From an uncultured bacterium (GTDB lineage Bacteria > Hydrothermota > Tepidihabitantia > CAYHGV01), in NCBI GenBank assembly GCA_964356135.1, contig CAYHGV010000001.1:8179-72178 (forward strand): a DNA stretch of 64,000 nt. The letters are read 5' to 3'. The stretch's first letter is position 1. Every line of letters begins with the position of its first letter. The notes under the pieces were generated by a model. That model was not told where the DNA came from and made no database searches. It saw only the letters and a program-made list of their open reading frames with translations. Positions 69-45,552 of the stretch are shown piece after piece. The translations under genes and the position numbers were made by a program.

Positions 69-911
69 ATGATCGACAGACAGAGCAGAGGAGCCGTGAA
101 TCCCTACGAACCGAAGCAGGCGAAACTGCTGACAGTGATTGACGAGACCCCGACGATTAAAACCTTCGGATTAGAGGTTCGGCCGCCGATTGAATTTGAA
201 GCGGGTCAGTTTATTGAACTGACCGTGCCCGGCGTCGGTGAAGCGCCCTTTACCCCTTCATCTTCGCCGTCCGACCGGGATAAACTCGAAGTTACGATCA
301 TGAAGGTCGGCCAGGTTACTTCGAAGTTATTTGAATTAAAACCGGGTGCTTCGTTGGGGATCCGGGGACCGTACGGTAAGCGCTATCCGCTTGAAAAATT
401 CGAGGGCAAAGAGATTCTGATTGTCGGTGGAGGAGTGGGGCTGGCACCGTTACGAGCGCTTTTTTTTGCGTTGATCGCCGAGCCACTGCGGTATAGTAAA
501 ATCGTCGTTCGCTACGGTGCCCGGACGCCGAAGGATATTCTCTTTAAACCGGAGCTGGTCCGGTGGCGAGAACTGGCAGGAGTCGATTTTTTACAGACGG
601 TGGATGTGGCGGATGAGTCCTGGGCGGGAAAGGTGGGAGTGGTGACGACGATTCTCGATGCGGTTCCGATCAAGTCCCTGAACAATAGCGTCGCGGTGGT
701 GTGCGGCCCACCGTTGATGATGAAGTTCGTGACCGAGCGGTTATTAGCGATCGGGTTTCGAGGTTCCAATATTTATTTGTCGATGGAAAAAAACATGTCG
801 TGCGGTGCAGGAAAGTGCGGTCACTGCCGGATGGGAAGTCTGTTTCTCTGTGAAGACGGGCCGGTGGTGACCTGGGATGACGTGAAAGAGATTGAGGACC
901 CGTTCTTATGA
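69..911 (+). CDS. Hydrogenase gamma-subunit-like FAD/NAD(P)-binding oxidoreductase with a C-terminal 2Fe-2S site (HydG/AsrB/PyrK family). The frame is open back to the window edge (ORF track starts at 15), so the true start may lie upstream.
   Basis: Read by eye, it resembles P. furiosus sulfhydrogenase gamma: NPYxP...TFxL near the N-terminus, GIRGPYG, and a C-terminal CGAGKCGHCRMGSLFLCEDGP cysteine cluster. The stop overlaps the first unit of a 14-bp tandem repeat. Confidence 0.7.
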   Translation: MIDRQSRGAVNPYEPKQAKLLTVIDETPTIKTFGLEVRPPIEFEAGQFIELTVPGVGEAPFTPSSSPSDRDKLEVTIMKVGQVTSKLFELKPGASLGIRGPYGKRYPLEKFEGKEILIVGGGVGLAPLRALFFALIAEPLRYSKIVVRYGARTPKDILFKPELVRWRELAGVDFLQTVDVADESWAGKVGVVTTILDAVPIKSLNNSVAVVCGPPLMMKFVTERLLAIGFRGSNIYLSMEKNMSCGAGKCGHCRMGSLFLCEDGPVVTWDDVKEIEDPFL

Positions 912-961
912 AGGTGCCCTTATGAAGGTGCCCTTATGAAGGTGCCCTTATGAAGGTTGCA
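906..961 (+). repeat. 14-bp tandem repeat TTATGAAGGTGCCC: three perfect copies plus one diverged copy. It spans the hydG-like stop codon and the fdhA-like start codon.
   Basis: Direct reading: units at 906-919, 920-933 and 934-947, with a diverged unit at 948-961. Each unit carries an AAGGTG Shine-Dalgarno-like hexamer and an ATG, placed so that the AAGGTG of one unit sits 5 nt upstream of the ATG of the next. Confidence 0.85.
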
Positions 962-3036: not shown

Positions 3037-3127
3037 TAATGAATCACGGAGGGTCAAGGCGATTGACATGGAGTGACACGGACGAGTGTGCACGGTGGAC
3101 AGTGAACTTTTCATGTGGGGATTCCCG

Positions 3128-4051
3128 ATGGTAGGTTCGGTACTAAAAATACTCTTCTCCTTCCTTATTTTCCCGGGATTTTTATTCGCCGCGATTGTCG
3201 GGTTCTTCTTAACCTGGTTCGACCGGATGGTTTCCGCCCGCATCCAGTGGCGGGTCGGGCCGCCCTGGTTTCAGCCGTTTGCCGATTTTTTCAAGCTGCT
3301 CTTGAAAGAATCGACGATACCGGACGGAGTACCCCGGGTCATTTTTCTCGGTGCACCGATACTCAGTCTTACCGGCATTACGATAGCGGCGGCAATGCTC
3401 GGGTTTATGAATCTCTATCCCCGGAGTTCATTTATCGGGGATCTGGTCGTGGTGGTCTATTTTTTAGCTTTTGTTCCCTTAGGGATAGTTATCGGTGGTT
3501 CAGCTTCCAAGAATCCGTTAGGAGTGGTGGGGGCAATACGGGAGATGAATCTCTATTTCGCCTATGAACTGCCGTTACTGATCTGCGTCGTTCTGGCGAT
3601 AATCAAGACGCACAGCCTCAAAATCGGAGAGATGATTCTCTACCAGCAGGCGCACGGTCCGGTGCTGTATTCAGTATCGGGCGCAATCGCATTCGTTGTT
3701 GTGCTGATAGCGACCCAGGCGAAGCTGGGCTATGCGCCGTTCGATATTCCCGAGGCCGAGCAGGAGATTATGGCCGGACCGTATATTGAGTATTCGGGGG
3801 TGGCGCTGGCGCTGTATAAGCTTACCCGGGCAATCACTTTTTTTGTGATGCCGGTGTTGATGATCACTATTTTCTGGGGCGGCGTGCGCGACCTCTGGGC
3901 AATTCCAAAATTTATTCTCATTGTAGTTCTGGTCATTCTCATAAAAAATACCAATCCTCGACTGCGAATCGACCAGGCACTGAAATTCTTCTGGTTCGGT
4001 TTAGGAACGGCTTCCGCGGTCGGTATGATCCTGGCGTTAACCGGACTATGA
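3128..4051 (+). CDS. Membrane subunit of the NuoH/HycD/MbhM family. The ORF track begins at 3086; the ATG at 3128, which has a GGGGA hexamer upstream, is the more likely start.
   Basis: The protein is polytopic and hydrophobic, with RIQWRVGPPWFQPFADFFKLLLKE, which is the NuoH signature R.GP..G..QP.AD..K. The downstream gene overlaps it by 4 nt. Confidence 0.75.
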   Translation: MVGSVLKILFSFLIFPGFLFAAIVGFFLTWFDRMVSARIQWRVGPPWFQPFADFFKLLLKESTIPDGVPRVIFLGAPILSLTGITIAAAMLGFMNLYPRSSFIGDLVVVVYFLAFVPLGIVIGGSASKNPLGVVGAIREMNLYFAYELPLLICVVLAIIKTHSLKIGEMILYQQAHGPVLYSVSGAIAFVVVLIATQAKLGYAPFDIPEAEQEIMAGPYIEYSGVALALYKLTRAITFFVMPVLMITIFWGGVRDLWAIPKFILIVVLVILIKNTNPRLRIDQALKFFWFGLGTASAVGMILALTGL

Positions 4052-4464
4052 GAGACATCCGACGCTGGGGTTTGAAAAAGTCGCCCTGGGTTTTCCATGT
4101 TTCGGTCAGCTCGTGCAACAACTGCGACATCGAAATTCTCGACGCGCTCACCCCTCGTTTCGACCCGGAACGATTGGGGGTGGTGCTGGTCGGTTCACCC
4201 CGGCATGCGGACGTGCTGTTGGTCACCGGTGTTGTCAATCGGATGTGTGTCGACCGACTGCTGCGGGTTTATACCGAAACGGCAAAACCCTGTCTGGTCG
4301 TTGGGGTTGGAACCTGTGCCTGCGGTATCGGGATTTTCCAGGACGGCTACAATACCGCCGGGCCGTTAGACCGGCATATCCCGGTTGATGTCTACATTCC
4401 GGGCTGTCCCCCAAAACCGGAGGCGATTATTTTAGGGATTGCCAAACTGCTCGCAAAGATATGA
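4048..4464 (+). CDS. [NiFe] hydrogenase small subunit of the NuoB/HycG/MbhJ type, carrying the proximal 4Fe-4S cluster.
   Basis: CNNCDIE...GTCACGIG...CPP(K)P cysteine pattern typical of NuoB-like small subunits; 138 aa. Confidence 0.85.
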   Translation: MRDIRRWGLKKSPWVFHVSVSSCNNCDIEILDALTPRFDPERLGVVLVGSPRHADVLLVTGVVNRMCVDRLLRVYTETAKPCLVVGVGTCACGIGIFQDGYNTAGPLDRHIPVDVYIPGCPPKPEAIILGIAKLLAKI

Positions 4465-4913
4465 TTGTCGAAGAAATCAAACTGCGGTTTCCCGATTTTG
4501 AACTGCATGAGCACGCTGCCCGGCGGCTCTACCTCACCGTTCCCCGGGAACGGCTGGGCGAAGTCGGGCGCTTCCTGTTTCTGGAAAAAGGAGCGCGGCT
4601 CTCGACTGCGACCGGCACCGATACCCGGGCAGGTTTTGAGCTGCTCTACCATTTCTCCTTAGATACCGAGGGGACGTTTGTTTCGGTGCGAACGGTCGTT
4701 CCAAAAGACGATCCGAATGTTGAGTCCCTGGCGAGCTTTATGCCGGCGGCAAACTGGATTGAGCGTGAGATCTTCGACCTCGTCGGCGTGGTTTTTTTGG
4801 GCCATCCGAATCTGAAGCGGCTGCTTTCCGCAGAGGATGTGCCGGAAGACCACCGGCCATTGCGGAGGGATTTTGATGGGAATGACGATAAGATTAAACC
4901 ACCGAGAACATAG
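4461..4913 (+). CDS. NuoC/HycE N-terminal-domain-like subunit (the 30-kDa subunit). Here it is a separate gene rather than fused to the large subunit.
   Basis: NWIEREIFDLVGVVFLGHPNLKRLL matches the NuoC signature ExExxDxxGxxFxGHP. Confidence 0.8.
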   Translation: MIVEEIKLRFPDFELHEHAARRLYLTVPRERLGEVGRFLFLEKGARLSTATGTDTRAGFELLYHFSLDTEGTFVSVRTVVPKDDPNVESLASFMPAANWIEREIFDLVGVVFLGHPNLKRLLSAEDVPEDHRPLRRDFDGNDDKIKPPRT

Positions 4914-5077
4914 AGAAATGGTAATCGAGCAGAGAGAGTCTCCAGGTTATAGGGTAACGGTAACGATGCCCGTCCCGTCAGTCGTTGATGGGCAAGGGTA
5001 TTTACATGCCGTTACCGTAGCCCTGCTCCGAAACGGGCGTCATAACCCTGACCTGGTTATTTATAACTTAAATTCCC

Positions 5078-6268
5078 ATGGAAGTTAGTCGCAGAATCGT
5101 TCCGATCGGACCGTTCCATCCGCTCCAGGAGGAGCCGGAATTTTTCAAGCTGATAGTCGAAGGCGAAAAGGTGGTCGGGCTCGAAATTACTATCGGCTAC
5201 AACCACCGCGGCCATGAGCTGTTATGCCAGAATCGGACCTACGAACAGATTCCCTACGTGGTCGAACGGATCTGCGGGATATGTTCGAACTCCCATCCGT
5301 TGGCGTATGTGCTGGCGGTAGAAGATCTGGCAAAGATTGAGGTGCCGGTCCGTGCCCATTATATCCGAACGGTCATTGATGAGCTCCAGCGTATCCACTC
5401 CCATCTCTTATGGTTGGGTCTGGCCGGACACTTCATCGGCTACAATACGGTCTGGATGTGGTCCTGGCGCTACCGCGAGGATGTGCTCGACATTTTTGAA
5501 CTCATCACCGGTAATCGTCAGAATTATGCGATGAATAAGATCGGTGGTGTGCGCCGGGATATAGTGGAAGAGGATATTCCCAGGATTCATACGATGCTTG
5601 GCGGTCTCGAAGGGAAAATAAAAAGTTTCATCGGGATGGTTCTGGACGACCCGGTTATCCGGGCACGGTTAGAACGGGTTTGCATCCTGACGAAAGAGCA
5701 AGCCCGAGGTTACGGCGTGTTAGGACCGATCGCCCGGGCTTCGGGGATTGCGATTGATGTGCGCCGGGACGACCCCTATGCCGCTTCGGATTGGGTGAAG
5801 TGGGATATGGTGGTTTACAGCGAAGGCGATATTCTGGCGAAGGCAAAGGTCAGGCTGGTCGAGTGTTTGGAGTCAGTGAGAATTGTCAGGCAGTGCCTGG
5901 ACCGGATGGAAGAGGGGCCGATTGAAACGATGGTCACTGAGATCCCGCCGGGCGAAGGTATCGGCCGGGTTGAGGCGCCGCGCGGCGAAGTCTTTCATTA
6001 TGTACGCTCGGACGGTAGCAATATGCCCAGCCGTCATAAGATTCGGGCTCCGAGTTTCATGAATGTTCCTTCCAATGAAGTGGCGGTAGTCGGCTATTCG
6101 ATTGCCGATGCCGCGCTCTGCCTGGCCGCGGTCGACCCCTGCTACTGCTGTACCGAACGGCTGGCGGCATTTGAAAACGGGAACAAGAGATTCAGCTTTC
6201 AGGAGCTGATTAAGCTTTCCTGGGAAAAAACCGAGGAACTTAAAACTAAATTTAGGATATGCAAATAA
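5078..6268 (+). CDS. Group-4 [NiFe] hydrogenase large (catalytic) subunit, HycE/EchE/MbhL-like, with a C-terminal extension of about 35 aa.
   Basis: The N-terminal Ni-binding motif RICGICSNSH is present. The C-terminal motif is DPCYCCTER (DPCxxCxxR). The protein is 396 aa, and the tail after the C-terminal motif implies maturation by a HycI-type protease. Confidence 0.9.
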   Translation: MEVSRRIVPIGPFHPLQEEPEFFKLIVEGEKVVGLEITIGYNHRGHELLCQNRTYEQIPYVVERICGICSNSHPLAYVLAVEDLAKIEVPVRAHYIRTVIDELQRIHSHLLWLGLAGHFIGYNTVWMWSWRYREDVLDIFELITGNRQNYAMNKIGGVRRDIVEEDIPRIHTMLGGLEGKIKSFIGMVLDDPVIRARLERVCILTKEQARGYGVLGPIARASGIAIDVRRDDPYAASDWVKWDMVVYSEGDILAKAKVRLVECLESVRIVRQCLDRMEEGPIETMVTEIPPGEGIGRVEAPRGEVFHYVRSDGSNMPSRHKIRAPSFMNVPSNEVAVVGYSIADAALCLAAVDPCYCCTERLAAFENGNKRFSFQELIKLSWEKTEELKTKFRICK

Positions 6269-6397
6269 TACTAATGACAATGCTACGCGAAGCGTCCGTT
6301 GTTACTCGAAGAGTAGATGCGAGAGCATCACACAGCGAAACGAATGATTCGAATATTACAATATTATTATTCGCTATCATTCGGGTCATTCGCTCAA

Positions 6398-7822
6398 ATG
6401 GATAGACTGCTGGTGCTGCTGATCCTGGTGCCGATTGGCGCCGGGGTGCTGACTCCGCTTTTCGGTAGAATCCATCGGGTCGGCCGGGAAGTATGGGCGC
6501 TCTTGGTGAGCGGTAGCGCGTTCGGACTTTCGATACTGTTGCTGCGCACGGTTTTGATCGGTAAACCGTTATGGGCGTGGCGGCTTCCGGTGATGAGCGT
6601 TCTGCCGGCACCGCTCATGTATATCGACCGGGTGGGCGTATTTTTAGCCGTTCTTTTCAGTTTCGTTTTCTTTTTGACCACGCTCTACTCGACCGGTTAT
6701 CTTAAGGGTTATCCCCACCAGAGCGAGTATTATGGACTGCTCCTGGTTCTGCTGGGCGCGGTCACCGGTATTGTCTTTTCTGCCCATCTTTTGATGCTCT
6801 ATCTTTTTTGGGAACTGGCGACGCTGGGCACCTGGCGGCTGGTTGGATTCTATCGCAACCCCAATGAGATCCGGATTGCGGAAAAGATGTTTCTCTTGAC
6901 TTTTTTCGGGTCGGTTTTGATGCTGTGCGGGTTTGGGGCGTTGTATGTCAAATACCAGACGTTTAACATTTTTGACCTGTCCGGACTGCCGATCGATAGC
7001 TGGGTAGCGTTCTTAATATTAGCCGGAATTTTTGTCAAATCCGCCAGCCTGCCTCTCCATACCTGGCTGGCAGACGCCCATCCCGCCGCACCGTCGCCGA
7101 TGAGCGCGCTACTCTCGGGGATTATCGCCAAGATTGGGTTGGTCGCCTATATCCGAATCTTCATCCAGGGTGTTACGCCCCCTCCTTTTTGGGGCGGGAC
7201 GGTTGCGGCATTGGCAGTTGCCAGCGCAGTCGTGGCAGCGGGCTGTGCGTTGGTCGAAAAAGATTATAAACGGATTCTCGCCTTTTCGACCGTGAGCCAG
7301 TTGGGGTATATCTTTATCGGTTTCAGCCTGGCGACCTACTGGGGGGTGGTGGGCGGGCTGCTCTATCTGGCATCGCATTGCCTGGCAAAAGCCGGGTTGT
7401 TTCTGGCGTTCGGCATTGTCGAGCGGCAAACCCATGAGCGCAATGTCGATCAGCTGGGAGGACTTGTCCATACCTTGCCGGTCACCGGGATTTCGACGTT
7501 TATCCTCGCGTTATCGATAATCGGTATTCCACCGTTGTTTGGATTTTTCAGTAAAGTTGTGGTCGTGATAGCGGCGGCACAAAAGAGCATCATCGTTACC
7601 GCCGGTTTGGTGCTGGTAGCGATTTTCACCCTGCTCTACTTTATTAGAATTTTCAGCAAGGTTTTTTTAGGCCACCCCAAAGGGCGGACGACGGTGCGGG
7701 AGCCGGTGCTCCTGACCAGTGTGGTGGTGGTGCTGGCGGCGGTTTCGCTCGTGTTCGGGCTGGGGATCGGCTATCTGGTCGGTTTCTTTAACCAGGGTCA
7801 GGCGATATGCTCAATGTTCTAA
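6398..7822 (+). CDS. Antiporter-like membrane subunit (NuoN/MrpD/HyfB family). The ORF track begins at 6317; the start at MDRLLVLL (6398) is the more likely one.
   Basis: HTWLADAHPAAPSPMSALLSG motif typical of NuoL/M/N and MrpA/D; polytopic membrane protein. Confidence 0.75.
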   Translation: MDRLLVLLILVPIGAGVLTPLFGRIHRVGREVWALLVSGSAFGLSILLLRTVLIGKPLWAWRLPVMSVLPAPLMYIDRVGVFLAVLFSFVFFLTTLYSTGYLKGYPHQSEYYGLLLVLLGAVTGIVFSAHLLMLYLFWELATLGTWRLVGFYRNPNEIRIAEKMFLLTFFGSVLMLCGFGALYVKYQTFNIFDLSGLPIDSWVAFLILAGIFVKSASLPLHTWLADAHPAAPSPMSALLSGIIAKIGLVAYIRIFIQGVTPPPFWGGTVAALAVASAVVAAGCALVEKDYKRILAFSTVSQLGYIFIGFSLATYWGVVGGLLYLASHCLAKAGLFLAFGIVERQTHERNVDQLGGLVHTLPVTGISTFILALSIIGIPPLFGFFSKVVVVIAAAQKSIIVTAGLVLVAIFTLLYFIRIFSKVFLGHPKGRTTVREPVLLTSVVVVLAAVSLVFGLGIGYLVGFFNQGQAICSMF

Positions 7823-9708
7823 CCTTACCGATTCTGATTCCGACCGCGGCCGCGCTGTTGGGTTTTCTGATCAAGCGGCTGCGGAACGAGTTCGGGTTTG
7901 TCGGCGCTTTATTTACCCTCTACTATGCGGTCCGGCTCTTTTTGGTTTCCCGCTCGGCTACCCTCAGCTACGAGATTGTCCGCATCAAATCCCTCTCCTT
8001 CAGTCTGTTTGTCGATGGGTTCTCGGGTTTGATCATTCTCGCCTGTTCGTTCTTTGGTCTGTTGGTTCTCCTCTATTCATTCCGGTCGATGCGCATCTAT
8101 GCCCGGCTCAAAGGCTATTACGCCTATCTGCTGCTCACCCTTGCCTGCGCCAACGGTGTTAGCCTGGCGCACGATCTTCTGCTGTTACTCTTTTTCTGGG
8201 GGTTCCTCCTGGCACTGCTCTACGGGCTGCTCTCGATCGGCAAGGGTGAAACCGGTGATGCCGCGAATAAGGCGTTTACGGTCATCGGCATTTCCGATTT
8301 TCTTCTGCTCTTTGGCATTGCTCTGCTCGTGGCAAAGACCGGCAAAGCCGATATTGTCCTCGAATCGAAACTGGTGTTCACCGATCCCGTGCTTGTTGCC
8401 AGTTACATTCTGTTAGCCCTCGGGTGTTTCGGTAAAGCCGGGGCATATCCTTTCCATACCTGGATTCCGGAAGCGGCAAAAGTTGCGCCGGCAACAACGA
8501 TGGCGTTCATCCCGGCGAGCCTCGATAAACTGTTGGGGATCTATCTCCTGGCTCGGGTGAGCTACTCGATTTTCGATCTTACCACATCGCTTGCCCTGCG
8601 AATCTTTTTATTGAGCGTCGGTGCGGTCACCATTCTGGCTCCGGTGCTGATGGCGCTGGTGCAGAAGGAAGCGATGCGGCTCTTATCGTTCCATGCAGTT
8701 TCGCAGGTGGGCTACATGATTTTAGGAATCGGCACCGGCACGCCGATCGGTATTGCCGGTGCGATTTTTCATATGCTCAACAATTCGATTTACAAGTGCA
8801 GTTTGTTTTTGACTGTCGGTTCGGTTGAAGACCGGGCCAAGACCACCGACCTGGATAAGCTCGGTGGTCTTGGCCGGCAGATGCCGATTACGCTCTTTTC
8901 TTTTATTATTGCGGCGTTCGCCATCTCCGGGGTTCCTCCCCTCAACGGGTTCTTTTCTAAGTGGATGGTCTATCAGGGGATTTTAGAAACGGCGAAAGAT
9001 GGTAATAAAATTTATCCGATATTTTTAATTGTTGCTCTGTTCGGCAGTGTCCTGACTCTGGCTTCATTTCTCAAGCTGCTTCATTCGCTTTTCTTAGGCG
9101 AGCGGCCGTCCGGGCTGGCACGGGTCCGGGAATCGGGTTTTGTGATGTGGATTGTTACGGTCCTATTGGCGGCGATATGTATCCTCTTTGGCGTTTGGGT
9201 GCGGGTGCCGCTTAACCTGTTCATTTACCCCGCCATCGGATTCATAAAACCCGCGTTTATCGGCTTCTGGTCGCCTTCATTAGCCACCGGCATTATCATT
9301 ATCGGAATTGTGCTCGGGCTCGTCATCTACCTTCTCGGGACGGCATGGAAACCGATGCGCCGTCACGTATTTACCGGTGGCGAGCTGCTCGCACCGGACG
9401 AGGGTCACATTACCGGTCCCCATTTTTATAGTCCGGTAAAGGAACTCTTCGCAAAAAGCTATGAGTTTGGGGAGGGTGGAGCCTTTGACTTTTACAACTA
9501 TTCTACCGGTATCATTCGGGCGGTCAGTATGGTTTTTTCGCGGTTGATTGACCGCGGGTTTGACCGATTCTACGAATTCCTCGCCCGGTTAGGAAATCTC
9601 TTCGGAAGCGCGCTTTCGTTCGTTCATTCCGGAGAATTGCCGACCTATTTAGGCTGGATCTTTTTAGGAATGGCGGTAATTTTGATCGTGCTCATGTTCG
9701 GCGGTTAG
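7807..9708 (+). CDS. MrpA/NuoL-like antiporter subunit with a C-terminal extension.
   Basis: 633 aa, highly hydrophobic, with an HTWIPEAAKVAP...LGGL core. It overlaps the upstream gene by 16 nt. Confidence 0.75.
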   Translation: MLNVLTLPILIPTAAALLGFLIKRLRNEFGFVGALFTLYYAVRLFLVSRSATLSYEIVRIKSLSFSLFVDGFSGLIILACSFFGLLVLLYSFRSMRIYARLKGYYAYLLLTLACANGVSLAHDLLLLLFFWGFLLALLYGLLSIGKGETGDAANKAFTVIGISDFLLLFGIALLVAKTGKADIVLESKLVFTDPVLVASYILLALGCFGKAGAYPFHTWIPEAAKVAPATTMAFIPASLDKLLGIYLLARVSYSIFDLTTSLALRIFLLSVGAVTILAPVLMALVQKEAMRLLSFHAVSQVGYMILGIGTGTPIGIAGAIFHMLNNSIYKCSLFLTVGSVEDRAKTTDLDKLGGLGRQMPITLFSFIIAAFAISGVPPLNGFFSKWMVYQGILETAKDGNKIYPIFLIVALFGSVLTLASFLKLLHSLFLGERPSGLARVRESGFVMWIVTVLLAAICILFGVWVRVPLNLFIYPAIGFIKPAFIGFWSPSLATGIIIIGIVLGLVIYLLGTAWKPMRRHVFTGGELLAPDEGHITGPHFYSPVKELFAKSYEFGEGGAFDFYNYSTGIIRAVSMVFSRLIDRGFDRFYEFLARLGNLFGSALSFVHSGELPTYLGWIFLGMAVILIVLMFGG

Positions 9709-9709
9709 G

Positions 9710-10234
9710 ATGCTGCTCTTTTCGCTCTTTCTGGTTTTTATAATTATTGCCGCGATCGTGGCAATCGAAATCAAAGACCTCCTGGCGGCGACGATTGCAG
9801 TGGGTGCCGTGGGCTTCGGGGTGGCGATTATGTTTATCCTCACCCAGGCTCCGGATCTGGCGATTGTCCAGATTGTCGTCGAGGTTTTAACCGTCATCGT
9901 CTTTGTCGCGGTTGTGCTGCAGACGACCCACGAGGATACGACCGTCGGGATGAATCGAGGAATGATATTCCCCCTCGTTTCCTATCTGGCGTTCGGTTTC
10001 GTTTTTATTACGCTTGTGCTCTATACGTTCAAAGAGCTTCCACGGTTTGGCGAGCCACTGATCAAGGTTGCACAGTTCTACATCGCTGAGGGTCTTGCGA
10101 AAACCGGCGCGGCGAATATCGTTGCGGCGGTGATTCTTGATTTTCGGGGTTATGATACCCTGGGCGAAGCAACGGTGCTGTTCACCGCAGTAATCGGAGT
10201 ACTAACTATATTAAGAAAGGTAGGACGAAAGTGA
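9710..10234 (+). CDS. MrpB/MnhB-related small membrane subunit (N-terminal domain type).
   Basis: A protein of 174 aa with 4-5 transmembrane helices, placed between the MrpA-like gene and the MnhB-domain gene. The assignment rests on position and hydrophobicity. Confidence 0.55.
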   Translation: MLLFSLFLVFIIIAAIVAIEIKDLLAATIAVGAVGFGVAIMFILTQAPDLAIVQIVVEVLTVIVFVAVVLQTTHEDTTVGMNRGMIFPLVSYLAFGFVFITLVLYTFKELPRFGEPLIKVAQFYIAEGLAKTGAANIVAAVILDFRGYDTLGEATVLFTAVIGVLTILRKVGRK

Positions 10235-10268
10235 ACAATCTCCGCGTTCGTCCGCGTCCTTCCTCGCT

Positions 10269-10712
10269 TTGGCAGAAATGAGCGGAATGACCGTGATTGT
10301 TAAAACGATGGCGCGGATTACGAGCGGGCTGATTTTCCTCTTTGGCTGCTATATCGTGCTCCACGGCCACCTGACGCCGGGCGGAGGATTCGCGGGCGGG
10401 GTGATCATTGCTGCGAGTTTTGTTCTTTTGATATTAGCCTTCGGCAGCCGGGAATCGGGCGAGCGGCGTTCGTATACGGTCGCTTCAATTATGGAAAGTG
10501 TCGGCGGAATTCTCTTTTTAGCGATTGCCGTTTTGGGTTTGTTTGTCGGGAGCTGGTTCTTTTTGAATCTGTTGCCCCATGGCACGCCGTTACGCATCTG
10601 GAGTTCGGGGATTATTTTGCCCGCCAATATCGCGATCGGCATCAAGGTCGGCGCAGGCTTGGTTAGTATCTTTCTTGCGTTTGCCGCTACCAAACACGTC
10701 ACGAAGGAGTAG
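10269..10712 (+). CDS. MrpB/MnhB-domain subunit.
   Basis: LHGHLTPGGGFAGG matches the MnhB signature (GH..PGGGFQ.G). Confidence 0.7.
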   Translation: MAEMSGMTVIVKTMARITSGLIFLFGCYIVLHGHLTPGGGFAGGVIIAASFVLLILAFGSRESGERRSYTVASIMESVGGILFLAIAVLGLFVGSWFFLNLLPHGTPLRIWSSGIILPANIAIGIKVGAGLVSIFLAFAATKHVTKE

Positions 10713-10820
10713 CATTGATGAAAACTGAGAACAATCGATGGAGAGGTAAAGAATTCAGTTTACCTCGGTATCTATCTCAGTCTCAATCAATGCTCAATTC
10801 CTTTTTGAGCACGGGATAAG

Positions 10821-11159
10821 ATGCTCTTCTTTGTTGCATGCATTGTGCTGTTTCTGATCGGTCTCTATGCGGTCATAACCAAGAAGAACCTGATCAAGAT
10901 TGCGATCGGGTTCTCGATTATGGAGTATGCGGTCAATCTGCTGTTTGCCCTGATCGGCTTCAAAAAAGGCGCAATCCCTCCGATTATAACCTCGCTCTCC
11001 GCACCGAAGAATTTTGTCGACCCTCTTCCCCAGGCACTGGTCCTGACCGCGATCGTCATCGGTTTGTGCACAACCGCACTGTTGCTTGCGATTGCCCTCC
11101 GGCTCTACCAGCGGTACAAGACATTCGATATCACCGAAATCAAAAAACTACGTGGCTGA
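10821..11159 (+). CDS. MrpC/NuoK-like small membrane subunit.
   Basis: 112 aa with 3 transmembrane helices. The reading is based on position within the Mrp gene order and on NuoK-like hydropathy. Confidence 0.7.
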   Translation: MLFFVACIVLFLIGLYAVITKKNLIKIAIGFSIMEYAVNLLFALIGFKKGAIPPIITSLSAPKNFVDPLPQALVLTAIVIGLCTTALLLAIALRLYQRYKTFDITEIKKLRG

Positions 11160-11326
11160 TAATGGAACCACAGATGCACACAGATAGACACAGATTAAAC
11201 GAAAATGAATAAGGGAAATTCTTACCGATTGACTGTAGATCGAGTACTATTTAACCATTATGGCTCGTGCGGACCGCTTCGGTCCGAGCGAGCCGAACCA
11301 TTTAACCAATTTTTGGACTGTTTTTA

Positions 11327-12823
11327 ATGTCTAATATCTTTCTTCCGCTTTTTATTGCGCTGCCGTTAGCCGGTGCGTTTCTCATTCCGCTCGTAGCCCG
11401 GCTGTGGCATGGGCTGGCCGATATTATCGCCAATCTCATCACCGCCGCCCTGGTCGGGCTCTCGATTTACGCGCTCACGGTCCTCGCCTATCAGCCGATG
11501 GTGGTCTATAAACTCGGCGGCTGGCCGCCGCCGATCGGCATCGTTATGGGTTTTGATGCCCTCTCCGGGCTGATGGTTGTAACGATTGCGGTTATCAGTT
11601 TTGCCGCGAGTCTGTTTTCGATTCGCTATCTCGATTCCTATACCGGGCGCTGGAAGTTCTATACTTTGTTCATGCTGATCATTGCCGGATTGAACGGAGT
11701 CGCCATTACCGGCGATATCTTTAATCTGTTCGTTTTTGTTGAGATTACTTCGGTCGCATCCTATGCCCTGGTTGCATTCGGCACCAGAGACGAGGAGCTC
11801 GAAGCCGGATTTAAGTACATGGTGATCAGTGAGGTTGGCGGTATGACCCTGTTGCTGGCGTTGGCGCTCATCTATGCCAAGGCATCAACCCTGAATATGG
11901 CAGACCTTGCCCGGATAATTAGCCTGCACGGCATGAGCCCGTTCTTCTGGTTTGTGCTTGGATTGTTGGTCATCACGTTCGCGATTAAAGCCGCGTTAGT
12001 GCCGTTCCACTCCTGGCTGCCTGATGCCCACCCCGCCGCACCGACGCCGGTGTCGGCGATTCTCTCCGGGGTTTATATCAAGGTTTTAGGAGTCTATGCC
12101 CTGAGCCGGATTGTTTTCAATGTTTTCGGGCTCCACCGTGCCAATGCTCCGGTCTTCTTCAATCTCCTTTTGATACTCGGGCTGGTTTCAATCGTCGTCG
12201 GGGCATTTCTGGCGTTATCCCAGAAGGATTATAAGCGATTGTTGGCGTATTCGAGCATCAGCCAGGTCGGTTACATTATCGTCGGGTTCGGGATTGGTAA
12301 CTACTGGGGGGTGTTGGGAGCCCTCTTCCATATTCTCGCCCATGCGTTGAACAAAAGCTTGTTGTTTTTGACTTCGGGTTCAGTCGACCGCGCACTGCGA
12401 ACGCGCGACCTGGACAAGATGGGTGGTCTGGAAAAGAAGATGCCCGTAACGGCATGGAGTTTTATTGTCGGTTCGACTTCGCTTGCCGGTTTACCGCCGC
12501 TGGTCGGATTCTTCTCCAAGCTGCTGATCGTGCTCGGAGCACTGGCGGCGAAGATGTATCTGGTGGCGGTGGCGGTGGTTCTGTTGAGTGTCGTCACCCT
12601 CGGCTATTTTCTGAAGATCATCAAACAGGCGTTCTTTGGTAAAGAGGCGACCGAGGGAGCGCACGAAGCGCCACTGGCGATGGCACTGCCGATGATTATG
12701 CTTGCGGTGCTGGCGGTTGCCTGCGGTCTCGGATATTTTTGGCTTACTAAATTCGTAGTCGGTCCAGCCGCCGATGCACTGTTACGGGGAATCGACTATG
12801 CACGACTCATCTTCGGTGGATAA
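11327..12823 (+). CDS. MrpD/NuoN-like antiporter subunit.
   Basis: HSWLPDAHPAAPTPVSAILSG motif; 498 aa, polytopic. Confidence 0.8.
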   Translation: MSNIFLPLFIALPLAGAFLIPLVARLWHGLADIIANLITAALVGLSIYALTVLAYQPMVVYKLGGWPPPIGIVMGFDALSGLMVVTIAVISFAASLFSIRYLDSYTGRWKFYTLFMLIIAGLNGVAITGDIFNLFVFVEITSVASYALVAFGTRDEELEAGFKYMVISEVGGMTLLLALALIYAKASTLNMADLARIISLHGMSPFFWFVLGLLVITFAIKAALVPFHSWLPDAHPAAPTPVSAILSGVYIKVLGVYALSRIVFNVFGLHRANAPVFFNLLLILGLVSIVVGAFLALSQKDYKRLLAYSSISQVGYIIVGFGIGNYWGVLGALFHILAHALNKSLLFLTSGSVDRALRTRDLDKMGGLEKKMPVTAWSFIVGSTSLAGLPPLVGFFSKLLIVLGALAAKMYLVAVAVVLLSVVTLGYFLKIIKQAFFGKEATEGAHEAPLAMALPMIMLAVLAVACGLGYFWLTKFVVGPAADALLRGIDYARLIFGG

Positions 12824-12943
12824 TATGATACCAAATACTGACCGCAGATGGACGCAGATAGACACAGATAAGAATAACACGAAGTGCTTGGTAACCGGGG
12901 GTGGTTTGTTATTTTACCGATTACCATTTAACCATTTTTTAGT

Positions 12944-13426
12944 ATGATTATCGTCTACTTCATCTTCGGCTACGGTCTCTGGCTGCTGCTGACTTGGACG
13001 GTCTACTACCAGTCGCTCATCGCCGGTGTGCTGGTGACCGTTCTCGCGACCGTTGTTTTTGGCAATTACTTCACCGGCAGCCCGAAAAAATTCTTAGACC
13101 CGCGCCGCTATTTCTGGGTGCTGGTTTATATTCCGGTGTTTATCTACTACATGCTCCGGGCAAATCTCGATGTCGCATTCCGGGCGTTGCATCCCCAACG
13201 GCCGATACGTCCCGGGATTGTCAAAATTCGGACCACCCTCAAAACCGATCTGGCAAAGACCTTTTTGGCTAACTCCATCACCCTCACCCCGGGTACGATG
13301 ACGGTCGAGATTGACGGCGAGTATCTCTATATTCATTGGATTTTCGTCGAGACGACCGACATCGAAGAAGCGTCGAAGGTAATTGCCCGACCATTTGAAC
13401 CGTATCTCCGGAGAATATTCGAATGA
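12944..13426 (+). CDS. MrpE/MnhE-like subunit.
   Basis: SITLTPGTMTVEIDGEYLYIHW resembles the MnhE family, and the gene sits in the MrpE position. It overlaps mrpF by 4 nt. Confidence 0.65.
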   Translation: MIIVYFIFGYGLWLLLTWTVYYQSLIAGVLVTVLATVVFGNYFTGSPKKFLDPRRYFWVLVYIPVFIYYMLRANLDVAFRALHPQRPIRPGIVKIRTTLKTDLAKTFLANSITLTPGTMTVEIDGEYLYIHWIFVETTDIEEASKVIARPFEPYLRRIFE

Positions 13427-13677
13427 CCGGTTTAATGGTGGTCTTGGCGGTTGCGGCATTTCTCTGTTTGTACCGGATTTTCCAGGGGCCGACCATTTCC
13501 GACCGGTCAGTCGGAGTCGATATTATGGGGATTATTTTCGTCGGCATTACCGCGCTCACCGCCGTGATCTTTAACCTCTCCTATTTATTGGATTTAGCGA
13601 TTGCCCTGGCGATGCTCAGTTTTATCGGCGTTCTGGCACTCGCAAAATATTTGGAAAAGCGGAATTTAGATGATTAA
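13423..13677 (+). CDS. MrpF/MnhF-like subunit.
   Basis: 84-aa two-helix membrane protein in the MrpF position. Confidence 0.65.
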   Translation: MTGLMVVLAVAAFLCLYRIFQGPTISDRSVGVDIMGIIFVGITALTAVIFNLSYLLDLAIALAMLSFIGVLALAKYLEKRNLDD

Positions 13678-14023
13678 ATTCTTCGGCTGGTTTTTTATCT
13701 GGCTGGGTGTGTTTTTCGACCTCTTGGGCTGTATCGGCTTGGTCCGCTTCCCGGATGTCTATAACCGGCTCCAGGCAGCGACGAAATCCGTAACCCTGGG
13801 GACCTTAGGGATCATGTTCGGGATTTTTCTCCTGCATGGTTTCAGTCCGATGGGAATCAAGGCTCTGATCTGCGGTATGTTTATCCTGTTGACCGCGCCG
13901 GTTTCAGCGCACGCGTTAGCCCGGGGTTCGCTCATCTTCCGGTCGAAGATGTGGAAAGGTTCAACGGTCGATAGGTTCGGTGAAGATAAACTCGGCGGCC
14001 CGCAAATCGAGGATAAGGAATGA
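13670..14023 (+). CDS. MrpG/MnhG-like subunit.
   Basis: A 117-aa protein with LLGCIGLVRFPDVYNRLQAATKS..LG, which resembles the MnhG family. Confidence 0.7.
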   Translation: MIKFFGWFFIWLGVFFDLLGCIGLVRFPDVYNRLQAATKSVTLGTLGIMFGIFLLHGFSPMGIKALICGMFILLTAPVSAHALARGSLIFRSKMWKGSTVDRFGEDKLGGPQIEDKE

Positions 14024-14052
14024 AACCTTTAATTGTAAGATTGAACCACAAA

Positions 14053-14073
14053 TCCGCCAAGATTCATGGCGGA
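14053..14073. promoter_or_regulatory. Palindrome TCCGCCA-N7-TGGCGGA, copy 1. Other copies lie at 14841-14861, 24802-24822 (degenerate), 35155-35175, 44244-44264 and 44316-44336.
   Basis: Read directly: 7-bp perfect inverted arms with an invariant 7-nt spacer length, in six copies, all in non-coding DNA. Confidence 0.6.
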
Positions 14074-14164
14074 CACAAAAAGCACAAAGAAGATAATTAT
14101 TTAGGTGTCAAAGAAATTTTCTTAAACTTTGTGTCCTTTGTATCCTTTGTGGTAAAAATTTCAA

Positions 14165-14773
14165 ATGAAAAAACCTAAACTCCGTGAGTTAGCCGAAGCT
14201 CTGCGGGCGATCTTCACCGGTCCCTATACCCGGAAGTTTCCCAGGGAGCCTTCACCCGCATTCCCCCGCTATCGGGGAATAATCGCCTTTGATAAAGATA
14301 AGTGTCTTGGCTGCGGCGCATGCGTTGAGGTCTGCCCGGCTTTAGCCCGGGAAATGGTCGACGATAAAAAAAAGAAAATCAGGAGGAATATCCACTATCA
14401 GGACCGGTGCGTCTACTGCGGTCAGTGTGTCGCCTACTGCACCAATAAGTATGCCATCGTTCATACGCCGGAATACGATCTGGCAAATCTCGACCGCAGC
14501 CACTACGATAATTCTATCGAATTAGAGCTGGTGATGTGCGAGGTCTGCGGAGGGGTGATAACCACCCGGAATCACCTGCGCTGGATCGCCAACAAGGTCG
14601 GTGAACTGGCGTATGCCAATCCGACGTTGATGTTAATAAAATTGGGCGAGCTGGGTTTAGTCGAGGAAACTGTACCCCGAACCGAACCCGCGCCCTACCG
14701 TTCCGACACCCAGAGATTGCTCTGCCCCCGATGCCGCCGGGAGATTCATCTCACCGAGGTATGGGGGTATTGA
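14165..14773 (+). CDS. 2x[4Fe-4S] ferredoxin subunit (NuoI/HycF/MbhN-like).
   Basis: The motifs are CLGCGACVEVCP and CVYCGQCVAYC, with extra Cys pairs (CEVCGG, CPRCRRE). The protein ends EVWGY*, and the last codons are duplicated at 18598-18630. Confidence 0.75.
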   Translation: MKKPKLRELAEALRAIFTGPYTRKFPREPSPAFPRYRGIIAFDKDKCLGCGACVEVCPALAREMVDDKKKKIRRNIHYQDRCVYCGQCVAYCTNKYAIVHTPEYDLANLDRSHYDNSIELELVMCEVCGGVITTRNHLRWIANKVGELAYANPTLMLIKLGELGLVEETVPRTEPAPYRSDTQRLLCPRCRREIHLTEVWGY

Positions 14774-14861
14774 CGTTTTTTTCCCGAGAGATAAAATAAT
14801 ACCAGCGAACTAACATAGAACTTGAATTCTGACATAACCATCCGCCACGAGGTATGGCGGA

Positions 14862-16625: not shown

Positions 16626-16796
16626 GAATTTCGGAGTTGCTTAATTCTAAAATTCCCTTCGTGCCTATTCGGGTCTCTTCGTGTCAATTCGTGGTTAAGA
16701 CTGGATTCGGGTTGAACTAAGGATACTGAGTAGGTTCTCCAAGCGTTTTTTTGTCATTGCGCGCAATCTCAAGTGTAAATATCTCAAGACGATTGT

Positions 16797-23768: not shown

Positions 23769-23995
23769 CCGGACAAATTTGAGTAAGAAAAAGATTTCAT
23801 CACGAAAGTTATGAAATCACGAAAACACGAAATTCGTAGAATAGAGCGACTGGAAGGAGCTCAAATTCGCCAAGAAGTATTGCTGATTTCGTGGTAATTT
23901 TTATACTCGTCAGGGCTGTCCTTGAGCACTTGACAATCGACTTTTAAAGGGCACAATGGATTAATGAAACCACAAATAAAAAATTTTAAGGAGGT

Positions 23996-24592: not shown

Positions 24593-24885
24593 GATAATGT
24601 AAACTCGAATCCAGACGTAACCACGAATGGGCACGAAGAGAAACGAAGTAACACGAACGCCTCGTTTCGAGGCGAAATATTAGACTTGAAATGCGAAGCA
24701 TAAGTGGAGTGAAACGATACCTGCAAAACCCGATATTGACTAAATAGGTGAAAAATAAAAAATATTTTTCTTTAATTCGCAATCATTCGAGTAATCTGTC
24801 ACTCGCCATACAGAGTGGCGGGTAAGGCGGACGTGGTTTTTTATCGCTGGATTGAGGGTAAATAATAATTAAGGAGGTGTTGAAT

Positions 24886-30151: not shown

Positions 30152-31959
30152 AACCGACACTCATCATCTCGGCCGGAACCTGCGGATTGGCACGCGGGGC
30201 AGGGGCGATTGTCAAAACCGCCCGGAGTTACCAGCGAGAGAAACGACTAACCGATAAATTCAGCATTAAAATCACCGGCTGTCACGGCCTGTGCGAAGCG
30301 GAACCAAACATTGTCGCGGTCGTAGACAAGAAAAAAATATTCTACCAGAAGTTAAAGCCGGATGATGTAAAAGAGATTATCGATGCGACCATGCTCGAGG
30401 GTAAGATCGTCGAGCGATTGCTGTACCGTGACCCAAAGACCGACACAAGCTATACCGAGATTGACGAGGTGCCGTTTTATCGGAAACAGAAACGGCTCTT
30501 ACTCGGCAACAATCTCTGGGTTGACCCGAAATCAATCGGCGATTATCTTGCGATCGACGGCTATCAGGGTTTGAAAAAGGTGCTGAACGGGCTCGCACCG
30601 GAAGCGGTGATCACGCTGATAAAAGATTCGGGTTTGCGCGGTCGGGGCGGAGCGGGCTTTCCCGCCGGGAAAAAATGGGAGCTGTGCCGTCAGGCACGAT
30701 CGGATATAAAATATATTATCTGTAATGCGGATGAAGGAGACCCGGGTGCGTACATGGACCGGAGTCTGCTCGAAGGTAATCCGCACAGCGTGATCGAAGG
30801 CATGATTATCGGCGGCTATGCAATCGGTGCCGGCGAAGGCATTATCTATGTCCGCAACGAGTATCCGCTGGCGGTAGAGAATGTTGGCCAGGCGCTTGAG
30901 CAGGCATACAAAAAGGGATTTTTGGGTAAGAATATTCTGAAGAGTAAATTTAGTTTCGATATCCGGGTGGTGCGGGGGGCGGGTGCCTTCGTGTGCGGCG
31001 AGGAAACGGCACTGATCGCTTCGATTGAAGGGTCGGTCGGCAGACCGAGGCCGCGGCCGCCGTATCCGGTGGAGAAGGGTTTGTGGAACAAGCCGACGAA
31101 TAACAATAACGTCGAAACCTGGGCGAATGTACCGCTGATCGTCAACCAGGGTAATGATTGGTATCGTCAGATCGGAACCGCGGGAAGCAAAGGAACAAAG
31201 ATATTTTCGCTCGTCGGTAAGATCAGAAATACCGGTCTGGTTGAGGTGCCGATGGGGATTACGCTCCGAGAGATAATTTACGATGTCGGCGGCGGGATTC
31301 CGGGCGATAAAGAGTTCAAAGCGGTCCAGACCGGCGGGCCGTCGGGCGGTTGTATTTCGAAGGATTTTCTCGACCTGCCGATCGATTACGAAAGCCTGGC
31401 GGCAGCGGGTTCGATCATGGGGTCAGGGGGAATGATCGTGATGGATAACGAAACCTGCATGGTCGATGTCGCACGATACTTTTTGAATTTCACCCAGCAG
31501 GAATCATGCGGCAAATGTCCGCCCTGCCGCCTCGGAACCAAGCAGATGGTCGAGGTTCTCAATCGAATTACCGGCGGCAGCGGGAAGGCGGGCGATATCG
31601 AGATTTTGGAGGAGATGGGAATGAATATCAAGGAAGCGTCGCTCTGCGGCTTGGGCCAGACCGCACCCAATCCGGCATTGACCACCATCCGTTATTTCCG
31701 GGATGAGTATGCCGCCCATATCGAAGAGAAGCGCTGTCCGGCGCTGGTCTGCAAAAACTTGATTTCGTATGTCGTTATACCCGAGCGCTGCACCGGCTGC
31801 GTCGTCTGCGCCAAGAATTGTCCGACCGGTGCGATCGTCGGTGAACCGAAAAAGATCTATGCCATCCACCAGGATAAGTGTATCAAGTGTGGGATTTGCA
31901 TCTCGGTCTGCCCGCCGAAATTTCGGGCGGTAGCAAAGGTATCACCGGTAATACAATGA
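30148..31959 (+). CDS. NuoF/HoxF/HndC-like NAD(P)H- and FMN-binding 51-kDa subunit with C-terminal 2x[4Fe-4S] ferredoxin domains.
   Basis: GRGGAGFPAGKKWE; ESCGKCPPCRLG (the N3 cluster); C-terminal CTGCVVCAKNCP and CIKCGICISVCP. Confidence 0.9.
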   Translation: MKPTLIISAGTCGLARGAGAIVKTARSYQREKRLTDKFSIKITGCHGLCEAEPNIVAVVDKKKIFYQKLKPDDVKEIIDATMLEGKIVERLLYRDPKTDTSYTEIDEVPFYRKQKRLLLGNNLWVDPKSIGDYLAIDGYQGLKKVLNGLAPEAVITLIKDSGLRGRGGAGFPAGKKWELCRQARSDIKYIICNADEGDPGAYMDRSLLEGNPHSVIEGMIIGGYAIGAGEGIIYVRNEYPLAVENVGQALEQAYKKGFLGKNILKSKFSFDIRVVRGAGAFVCGEETALIASIEGSVGRPRPRPPYPVEKGLWNKPTNNNNVETWANVPLIVNQGNDWYRQIGTAGSKGTKIFSLVGKIRNTGLVEVPMGITLREIIYDVGGGIPGDKEFKAVQTGGPSGGCISKDFLDLPIDYESLAAAGSIMGSGGMIVMDNETCMVDVARYFLNFTQQESCGKCPPCRLGTKQMVEVLNRITGGSGKAGDIEILEEMGMNIKEASLCGLGQTAPNPALTTIRYFRDEYAAHIEEKRCPALVCKNLISYVVIPERCTGCVVCAKNCPTGAIVGEPKKIYAIHQDKCIKCGICISVCPPKFRAVAKVSPVIQ

Positions 31960-32094
31960 TTACTATAAATTCTAAATTCGAAGTTCGAAATTCGAAACAA
32001 GCACGCATAATCAAAATACAAAATTCAAAACTGCACTATTCAAATTTTGAGCACTTAGAATTTGGGTATTGTTCTGAATTGAACAGAGCGAGAA

Positions 32095-35078: not shown

Positions 35079-35206
35079 GCATACTATAAAAACCACGGAA
35101 TACACTGAAAGCACTGAACAACAGATTCGGATAGTTCATTATTTTCCTTCCGTGTCCGCCATAGATCGTGGCGGATCCGTGGTTACATTATTTGTCCGGG
35201 GACTTG

Positions 35207-41838: not shown

Positions 41839-41992
41839 TTAGGAGTTAGGAGACATCAGTAAGATGCAGTGTATCCGCGTTATTCAGTGTCAAACTCCGT
41901 GGTTATCTGCGTTTTCGATAAAGTTGTGGGATTTTCTACTTCGTGAGACATAGATGTCGAAGAAACAGGAAGTTGAGTTTCAACATTGAGGG

Positions 41993-45151: not shown

Positions 45152-45552
45152 TTTTCCTCCATGTTTTTGCTCATTTTGGTTATTGCCCATTAAGTGCGGT
45201 GTTCCCCTGAGACCTTCCTTTGAATCCTCTGTTTGGGACAAACCATCATCACCGATACTTGTTCTGTAACCCATATAATTCCTTGCCTTACGACAAATTA
45301 AGCCGTAAAGCGGTTTTGCCAAGCACAATATTTGGTAGGTTTTTCAATGGCTTTTTTATAACTTCCTGGTTATAGACGGCTACCTCAACCTCAACCGGTA
45401 AGTCTTTTTACGGAATATTTGACATAGTGCGAATCGAGCCCTAGATTAGAGCGCAGGACGTCAAATAGATTACCTACAATTTAATGAGAAAATTCTCAGG
45501 AACTTTTTCCGAGTTGTGGCTTCAGCGCAATCTTAAATCTGTCAATTAAATT

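Follow-up and report, generated by a model that had tools for sequence, protein, structure and literature searches.

What are the long spacers that interrupt a respiratory-complex operon whose orthologues are compact? The question is raised by a 64,000-nucleotide (nt) stretch of contig CAYHGV010000001.1 from an uncultured bacterium, referred to here as the window, in which an Mbh/Mbx-like (Mbh/Mrp-type) operon occupies positions 3086-14773. The operon and the spacer features described below lie on the plus strand, and its subunits comprise NuoH-, NuoB-, NuoC- and NuoD-like (NiFe large-subunit-like) proteins, two antiporter-M proteins, MbhD/E, MnhB-G and a ferredoxin. The host belongs to candidate division WOR-3, which also supplies the closest MnhD homologues, the best being only 64% identical when the window's own record is excluded. 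An earlier sequence-only reading of the locus described three structured, sequence-related gaps in an otherwise tightly packed gene array and proposed that they serve as arrays to which a regulator binds, act in the processing or stability of the RNA, or are relics of small mobile elements. The present analysis favors the last of these. The spacers are probably selfish repeat inserts, two of them from a cross-phylum family of tandem arrays, that are tolerated through chains of small open reading frames (ORFs), termed relay ORFs here, which run across each insert from stop codon to start codon.

The three gaps are found where they had been placed, at the MnhB/MnhC junction (gap 1, 10713-10820), the MnhC/MnhD junction (gap 2, 11160-11326) and the MnhD/MnhE junction (gap 3, 12824-12943), and the bordering MnhB, MnhC, MnhD and MnhE are full length compared with their orthologues. 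The description of the remaining operon as tightly packed does not hold, as further spacers are present between the 30-kDa and 49-kDa subunit genes (gap 0, 4914-5077, 164 nt), at 6269-6316 (48 nt) and at the MnhG/Fer4 junction (gap 4, 14024-14164, 141 nt).

Related operons indicate how the spacers arose. In four compact orthologous WOR-3 operons (the P0007 contig and loci L122, L123 and L132) every junction measures -40 to +12 nt, with MnhB/MnhC junctions of -4 to +2 nt, an ATGA overlap between MnhG and Fer4, and an overlap of 8-32 nt between the 30-kDa and 49-kDa subunit genes. These four operons lead to the conclusion, drawn from sequence comparison, that the spacers are lineage-specific insertions. 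Four other relatives (L001, L121, L133 and L134) carry different inserts at other junctions. The L001 inserts are found at the antiporter/antiporter, D/E (443 nt) and E/F junctions, while the L133 insert, at the E/F junction, includes a sense-oriented one-armed CACGGAT/CACAGAT array. The operon of the closest relative, L121, contains two 23S_rRNA_IVP four-helix-bundle genes (699-1205 and 2532-2906) between Mbh/Mrp genes; both point in the direction of the operon and have inverted arrays of CCCCTGCTCA and TTGGGAT units on their flanks, and one occupies the same C/D junction as gap 2 of the window. The cleanest case is provided by L134 and L135, whose flanks are ~93% identical: a 100-nt insert is present in L134 only, between G and Fer4 (9506-9605 vs 10098/10099), where L135 has a TAG-ATG junction. 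The L134 insert contains CGCAGGAAA units and supplies a GGAGG 8 nt before the Fer4 ATG. The suggestion that the spacers are relics of small mobile elements is supported by their absence from the compact operons, by the other inserts of the relatives, and by the dispersal of the array family across phyla that is described below.

The most interesting result is the pattern of relay ORFs across these inserts, which the sequence-only reading had missed. A relay is defined as a chain of ATG-started ORFs, linked within +/-10 nt, that leads from the upstream stop to the downstream start; a more permissive definition (GTG/TTG starts, +/-20 nt) was discarded as too loose to inform. Relay ORFs bridge 11 of 12 spacers in five genomes against 2.05 expected (P = 4e-10, Poisson-binomial, pooled over dinucleotide-preserving shuffles in which the first ATG was kept). 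Every long spacer of the operon is spanned, and its relay begins 0-5 nt after the upstream stop and ends on or just past the next start. In gap 0, a 56-amino-acid (aa) ORF (4918-5088) has its ATG 4 nt after the stop and ends 10 nt past the next ATG. The 33-aa ORF of gap 1 (10718-10819) starts 5 nt after the MnhB stop, and its TAA is separated by a single G from the MnhC ATG (P = 0.05 with the ATG kept). Gap 2 is crossed by two ORFs: the first (11162-11212, 16 aa) starts 2 nt after the MnhC stop and reads through the array, and the second (11205-11327, 40 aa; P = 0.06) overlaps the stop of the first with its start and joins the MnhD ATG in a TAATG overlap. The ORF of gap 3 (12825-12947, 40 aa) starts 1 nt after the MnhD stop and ends in a TGA that overlaps the MnhE ATG as ATGA, while that of gap 4 (14020-14178, 52 aa) starts in an ATGA overlap with the MnhG stop and ends 13 nt past the Fer4 ATG. 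The relatives present the same picture. All three L001 spacers are bridged, including the 443-nt one by ORFs of 95 and 54 codons; L121 is bridged with ATGA at both ends, L133 is bridged, and L134 is bridged with ATGA on the left and TAATG on the right.

Open frames across the spacers are in excess even though stop codons are not rare on the sense strand (76 vs 62 antisense). Stops are removed from one sense frame and abundant in the remaining two, with counts per frame of 5,0,5 in gap 0 and 4,0,4 in gap 3, where the two unused frames have four stops each; the other counts are 6,1,0 and 3,3,0. The array units deviate from T-R-R exactly where a stop would fall in the frame that is used, reading TGG in gap 3 and TTA (unit 3) and TGC in gap 2. 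Two sets of gaps serve as controls. Among the other co-directional gaps of the window, 1 of 18 is bridged, and this one (31960-32094) is itself an array insert between NuoF- and NuoG-like genes; none of ten arm-bearing gaps around cassettes with a GxxExxY gene (see below) in other phyla is bridged. Candidate 'ghost' start codons matching orthologous N-termini were also considered and were not convincing. The bridging pattern suggests selection for ribosomes crossing the insert.

A mechanism consistent with this pattern starts from the ancestral junctions, which overlap. Small gene-less repeat elements inserted at junctions where, in relatives, stop and start codons are overlapping or only a few bases apart. 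Ribosomes that terminate on the upstream gene would reinitiate on the mini-ORF, melt the structure of the insert as they cross it, and then begin anew on the gene of the following subunit. Such a relay would keep termination-reinitiation coupling and avoid transcriptional polarity, and the inserts may persist because the relay ORFs preserve translational coupling.

A side observation concerns a repeat that resembles a ready-made relay. At window positions 905-957, a FAD/NAD-binding oxidoreductase gene (15-911) meets a molybdopterin oxidoreductase gene (950-2584) in an ATGA stop-start junction that is multiplied by a perfect 14-nt tandem repeat (CTTATGAAGGTGCC, 3.8 copies). A mini-ORF, MKVPL*, is formed by every unit and ends in the ATGA of the next one, and a change in copy number might alter the coupling of the two genes.

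The inserts in gaps 2 and 3 are recognized by their arrays. The gap 2 array, ACCACAGATGCACACAGATAGACACAGAT (11167-11195), consists of three sense-oriented CACAGAT units with a 10-nt period, and the gap 3 array, ACCGCAGATGGACGCAGATAGACACAGAT followed by AAGAATAACACGAAG, is located at 12841-12869. The 15-mer CAGATAGACACAGAT with at most 2 mismatches has four matches in the 64 kb, all within these two gaps, against 0.07 expected, and Tandem Repeats Finder (TRF) assigns both arrays a period of 10 with 2.7-2.8 copies. The threefold decamer that the sequence-only reading had described as common to the two gaps is therefore real and non-random. The shared tail that it had noticed before the next start codon is likewise confirmed. 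The tail CCATTTAACCA is exact at 11298 in gap 2 and 12924 in gap 3, with a 1-mismatch copy at 11247; its count alone is not significant (3 observed vs 1.4 expected), and the copies are collinear with TTACCGATT (11222 and 12914) in both gaps and fall in the same distance class to the next ATG. In gap 2 the tail is split into TTACCGATT ... CTATTTAACCA (11222-11257) and CCATTTAACCAATTTTTGGACTGTTTTTA (11298-11326), the second part reaching the MnhD ATG, and in gap 3 the common tail is TTACCGATTACCATTTAACCATTTTTT (12914-12940). Between the two parts in gap 2 lies a GC-rich hairpin, GGCUCGUGCGGACCGCUUCGGUCCGAGCGAGCC (11262-11294, z = -4.0), that occurs once in the window. The hairpin, read as a nested insertion, is bordered on both sides by the 9-nt direct repeat ATTTAACCA (11248 and 11299), whose copies are offset by 51 nt, so that the reading frame is preserved.

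A 15-mer scan of one genome per species extends the arrays to at least 119 loci. The matches listed are not due to chance: a second C[AG]C[AG]GAT unit follows in 96 of 124, where 12.5% would be expected, and a third in-phase unit in 72. The sequence-only reading had named absence of the motifs from orthologous operons among the observations that would refute it, and the motifs are indeed absent from the compact orthologous operons. The family consensus is (A)ACCACAGAT-RRA-CACAGAT..., usually in the form (T)TAACCACAGAT-RRA-CACAGAT-RRA-CACAGAT, so that the arms consist of tandem 10-nt units, CACAGAT-R-R-A, normally starting with (T)TAACCAC. About half of the arrays have an inverted partner (<=700 nt; 40-550 nt off) and about one third to one half are solo. 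The arrays are intergenic and occur in every gene orientation, the solo arrays having no strict strand bias relative to genes. The hosts among the matches listed include Acidobacteriota, Planctomycetota, Verrucomicrobiota, Cyanobacteria, Chloroflexota, Latescibacterota, Spirochaetota and Bacteroidota, as well as delta- and gammaproteobacterial metagenome-assembled genomes (MAGs) and one Methanoperedens MAG.

On unit sequence and period, the arrays of gaps 2 and 3 are assigned to this family: they have at least two to three C[AG]C[AG]GAT units at a 10-nt period, and the first unit follows (A)AC/GC. The gap 2 arm matches one in L034 (Planctomycetota) with 97% identity over 32 nt, and the gap 3 arm is 100% identical over 30 nt to L069 (Latescibacterota) and also matches L005, with which it has in common the downstream AAGAATAACACGAAG. 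The window copies nevertheless look one-armed or chimeric because the tail common to both consists of a different kind of unit, 8 nt long (TTACCGAT, TACCATT, TAACCATT), and they are read as decayed or chimeric, gene-less derivatives that keep the left arm only. A decayed PDDEXK_3 gene was not detected in the gaps (hmmsearch E > 1), and the S23p gene is absent from the window. Rfam at gathering score gave no match in the window and only tRNA and signal recognition particle (SRP) RNA at 18 family loci; a CRISPR-DR match inside mnhD from an E-value run (E = 0.35) was judged to be chance. Likeness to a DnaA box was also set aside. In L021, L042, L062, L110 and L117 the array opens with TTATCCACA, which equals the DnaA-box consensus, and this is judged coincidental because the usual form is TTAACCAC or TAGCCAC and the arrays come as inverted pairs. 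A description of the array sequences was not found in the searchable literature.

The family is also associated, by the genes that its arms enclose, with small cargo genes. Inverted pairs with a long interior contain a small gene, which in L078, L010 and L028 is a PF13366 PDDEXK_3 / TIGR04256 'GxxExxY' gene between perfect inverted CACAGAT or CGCAGAT arms. The larger family members carry this nuclease-fold gene rather than a known transposase. In a published listing, PDDEXK_3 has no assigned function and has been transferred several times between divisions (PMC3424549). An independent test of cargo used seven plasmid loci chosen solely by tblastn with a GxxExxY protein. Inverted CAC-type arms are present in four to five of the seven, one locus is one-armed (Sphingomonas, between fabD and fabG) and one is unclear. 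The arm units are CACAGAG in Bernardetia and Bacteroides and CACGGAT in Treponema and Fusobacteria, and CGCGGAT adjoins the Gemmatirosa gene; all plasmid cassettes with an annotated neighbor gene are co-oriented with it. The GxxExxY genes that lie between co-oriented housekeeping genes, namely fabD/fabG (L131, the Sphingomonas plasmid), radA and a FAD-dependent protein gene (L130), and ade and a mannose-1-phosphate guanylyltransferase gene (L128), look like operon hitch-hikers. Different units (TTGGGAT, TTGGTCA and CCCCTGCTCA) make up the arrays on either side of the PF05635 / TIGR02436 four-helix-bundle genes in L121 and L079.

Several observations weigh against the interpretation of the spacers as relay-tolerated members of a selfish family. 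For the relays, the ORF-chain rule was defined post hoc, after the pattern had been noticed; the periodicity of the repeats is not captured by the shuffles; for several gaps taken singly the probability is modest (0.14-0.57), and it is pooling that gives the result its strength; and the translation of the mini-ORFs, and the tolerance of inserts that would follow from it, are deduced from DNA sequence. For the family, membership of the window copies is assigned from ~30 nt of array plus ~20 nt in common with L005, and only two CACAGAT array copies are present in the 64-kb window. No inverted second arm lies within a few hundred nt of the gap 2 and 3 arrays, where the best reverse-complement score is 0.23-0.25 of arm length, equal to the null mean. 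The shared tail is almost without relatives: a metagenome scan for the array together with TTACCGATT returned one weak relative, L124. A clear target-site duplication was not found at the spacers, whose boundary direct repeats are weak (TAATG; TATGAT, p ~0.09; AATGAAA, p ~0.02), nor was a direct target duplication found around the inverted pairs of the family. Finally, we know of no demonstrated activity of GxxExxY proteins.

Among the alternatives, the one that survives best, although it is rather unlikely, is that the spacers are RNA processing or stability elements, such as RNase III or RNase E sites or protective 3'-end hairpins, that set subunit mRNA levels; exapted inserts of this kind may coexist with the relay. 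Its evidence is provided by the hairpin inserts. Gap 0 is an inserted hairpin with GGTAAC-unit arms (z = -3.6). Gap 1 consists of a hairpin element (10714-10791) followed by a short hairpin (10792-10810), and the long-range inverted repeat reported by the sequence-only reading is real: 15 of 18 positions are complementary, the GGTAAA/TTTACC hairpin is enclosed, and the fold of -32.6 kcal/mol has a z of -3.9. Gap 1 has no tandem units, and relatives were not found in the sequences searched; it is a hairpin insert unrelated to the decamer-array family. Gap 4 is a complete two-armed element of CACAAAG units, arranged as AACCACAAAT..CACAAAAAGCACAAAG ... CTTTGTGTCCTTTGTATCCTTTGTGGTAAA, with a nested TCCGCCA-N7-TGGCGGA hairpin at 14053-14073 and a z of -3.7. 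Gaps 0, 1 and 4 and the nested hairpin of gap 2 thus fold far better than shuffles (z -3.6 to -4.0), and the stems of the related 23S rRNA intervening sequences (IVSs) are RNase III substrates (PMC4990558). The description of the three original spacers as structured therefore stands for gap 1, applies in gap 2 only to the nested hairpin, and fails for gap 3 (z = +1.3). The decamer spacers have neither a partner arm nor a fold, the inserts vary in kind and place among relatives so that no conserved stoichiometric design is visible, and the frames that are open across the hairpins suggest that ribosomes melt them. A role in RNA processing is plausible for the hairpin-type inserts only.

A less probable explanation is that the spacers are neutral decayed repeats whose open frames merely reflect what the repeats are made of or how the chain was defined. 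The post hoc choice of the chain rule, some high single-gap probabilities (0.27-0.57), and the smaller number of independent codons in repeats are all consistent with it, but it is difficult to reconcile with the pooled P of 4e-10. Stops are also frequent in the two other sense frames and in the antisense of the same, often palindromic, sequences, starts and stops sit in ATGA or TAATG overlaps, and similar repeat-bearing gaps outside the operon family are unbridged (0/10 and 1/18).

Binding of a regulator, either iteron-like or of OmpR/PhoB type, to decamer arrays that control internal promoters or subunit ratios is very improbable. Three direct repeats, one per helical turn, at two junctions are what such a site would look like, and the unit itself has properties of a protein target. 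Arm-arm complementarity at variable positions is 0.57 within elements and 0.52 between unrelated elements; selection for pairing between the arms is rejected, and because complementarity hardly exceeds the between-element level, each unit seems to be constrained on its own. This conservation of the unit core independently in each arm would fit recognition of the unit by a protein, although such a protein is more likely to be encoded by the element. The regulator reading is not supported because the arrays are not conserved at the orthologous loci and elsewhere occur in every gene context: in other phyla their surroundings are unrelated and the neighboring genes point in any direction, and most arrays form inverted pairs, some of which enclose a selfish small gene. 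Sigma-70 promoters and intrinsic terminators in the gaps are not above background.

That the small ORFs encode real peptides, either extra small subunits or sensing leader peptides, can be dismissed despite their 33-56 codons with ATG starts and the PFN(H/Q)FL ending common to gaps 2 and 3, as the sequences are unrelated between genomes and gaps except for the stretch copied at the DNA level, read through repeat units, lack similarity to PDDEXK_3, and are not hydrophobic although the complex is membrane-embedded.

The interpretation as selfish inserts with relay ORFs has consequences beyond this operon. Apparent operon-specific regulatory iterons turn out to be best read as selfish DNA, and the relay pattern offers a falsifiable rule for tolerance of insertions in tightly coupled operons. 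As relay mini-ORFs are never annotated, they matter for gene calling and for the reading of MAG operons. A broader proposal, which links two claims and falls somewhat short of an even chance that both hold, can be put forward tentatively. The first claim is a cross-phylum superfamily of cassettes, the arms of which would be arrays of 7-10 nt units (CACAGAT, CACAGAG, CGCGGAT, TTGGTCA and others) and the cargo of which would be a GxxExxY PD-(D/E)XK protein or an Avd/S23p-like four-helix bundle; the cassette protein would recognize the unit and drive its spread, and the gene-less derivatives would include 23S rRNA IVSs and the short tandemly repeated repetitive (STRR) sequences of cyanobacteria. 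The second is that elements in the stop-start junctions of multi-subunit-complex operons would persist only if relay mini-ORFs form a chain across them; this would be a general mechanism, as yet without a name, by which operons take up selfish DNA and still retain translational coupling. One testable class of elements would then join the Coxiella IVS with its GACAGAT repeats, the GxxExxY and four-helix-bundle genes whose multiple copies lack an explanation, the STRR-type repeats, and a decamer that is conserved from Cyanobacteria to Planctomycetota and WOR-3.

Further repeats are distributed throughout the window. At least eight arrays of sister units accompany the two CACAGAT copies, including CACAAAG units (14024-14164), CACGAAG units (16657-16693 and 24632-24657), CACGAAA units (23800-23900 and 44052-44200) and CACAGAA / CACGGAA units (35100-35185 and 44230-44350), and the genome looks heavily colonized by such arrays. 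Another intergenic array is present at 41900-41950, and sister arrays often end in ...GTGGTTAA. The TCCGCCA-N7-TGGCGGA hairpin of gap 4 has five copies in the window (14053, 14841, 35155, 44244 and 44316) against 0.02 expected, most of them nested in array arms; the ATG at which a hydrolase gene starts (14854) falls within the copy at 14841-14861. The bridged control spacer at 31960-32094, between the NuoF-like gene and a NuoG- or formate-dehydrogenase-like gene, contains AAATTCG (4.4 copies) and CAAAATA arrays (z = -2.7) and a single 52-aa ORF across it (31956-32114). Other repeats include a 120-nt tandem repeat inside a minus-strand gene (36792-37702), a gene segment of ~900 nt that is present twice and contains repeats of 156 nt (44400-45330 vs 49400-50680), and a 262-nt repeat pair with 87% identity (56720-58165).

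Among known systems, the closest described relative found is the IVS of Coxiella 23S rRNA, and the paper on it is the only relevant one found in literature searches on GxxExxY, S23p and small dispersed repeats. This selfish IVS contains an S23p ORF and a stem, formed by inverted repeats, that RNase III cleaves; at its start are three GACAGAT repeats in tandem, and strains differ in how many they have (PMC4990558). The IVSs of Coxiella, Leptospira and others are, like the spacers, small selfish elements inserted in sense orientation into DNA that is transcribed. Inverted repeats that form a stem bound them, and some, like members of the family, carry an S23p four-helix-bundle gene (PF05635 / TIGR02436). 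They differ in that they sit in helix 25 or 45 of 23S rRNA and have 7-nt units, whereas the inserts described here sit in mRNA at operon junctions between protein genes, have 10-nt units and, in the window copies, are one-armed, gene-less and spanned by mini-ORFs. IVS-type traits are divided among the spacers, with tandem repeats in gaps 2 and 3 and a stem in gaps 0, 1 and 4 but not in gaps 2 and 3, while the S23p gene is absent from the window and present in the same operon of L121.

The repetitive extragenic palindromic (REP) sequences, with BIMEs and REPINs, and the miniature inverted-repeat transposable elements (MITEs; ERIC, Correia, RUP and Nezha) are also short, non-coding, hairpin-forming and often nested, occupy intergenic positions including those in operons, and vary in presence between close relatives. 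They consist of one palindrome or of plain terminal inverted repeats, whereas the arms of the present family are tandem arrays of short units, kept across phyla. The units are not palindromic and a GTAG/CGTC tag was not found in the arrays, which separates them from REPs and REPINs; gaps 2 and 3 lack the combination of terminal inverted repeats and target-site duplication that characterizes MITEs; and neither a REP-associated tyrosine transposase (RAYT) nor a DDE transposase was found near the spacers. Iterons and the phased repeats of OmpR/PhoB resemble the arrays in having three direct repeats with a 10-11 bp period, but the window arrays are not beside a replication or regulator gene, are dispersed and are not conserved at orthologous loci. 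The STRRs of heterocystous cyanobacteria are heptamer repeats, STRR2 being TTGGTCA. They are likewise tandem short units in intergenic DNA, and TTGGTCA or TTGGGAT arms surround four-helix-bundle genes in L079, L121 and L001, although the STRR unit is unlike that of the window arrays. To our knowledge STRRs have been described as fingerprinting repeats, and we know of no link to cassette genes.

For the relay itself, two comparisons are informative. The palindromic elements of Rickettsia are selfish palindromic repeats that are tolerated because they are translatable; they lie in frame inside a host protein, whereas here separate mini-ORFs lie between genes. In translational coupling and in synthetic bicistronic designs, a leader cistron ends in ATGA or TAATG on the start of a gene. 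The relay ORFs are likewise short upstream ORFs with a stop overlapping the downstream start, and their chains begin at the stop of the upstream gene; they differ in that the leader cistrons lie inside inserted repeats, where selection seems to have acted on them once the repeat had inserted or while it did so. The relay ORFs may thus be regarded as the natural counterpart of engineered bicistronic couplers.

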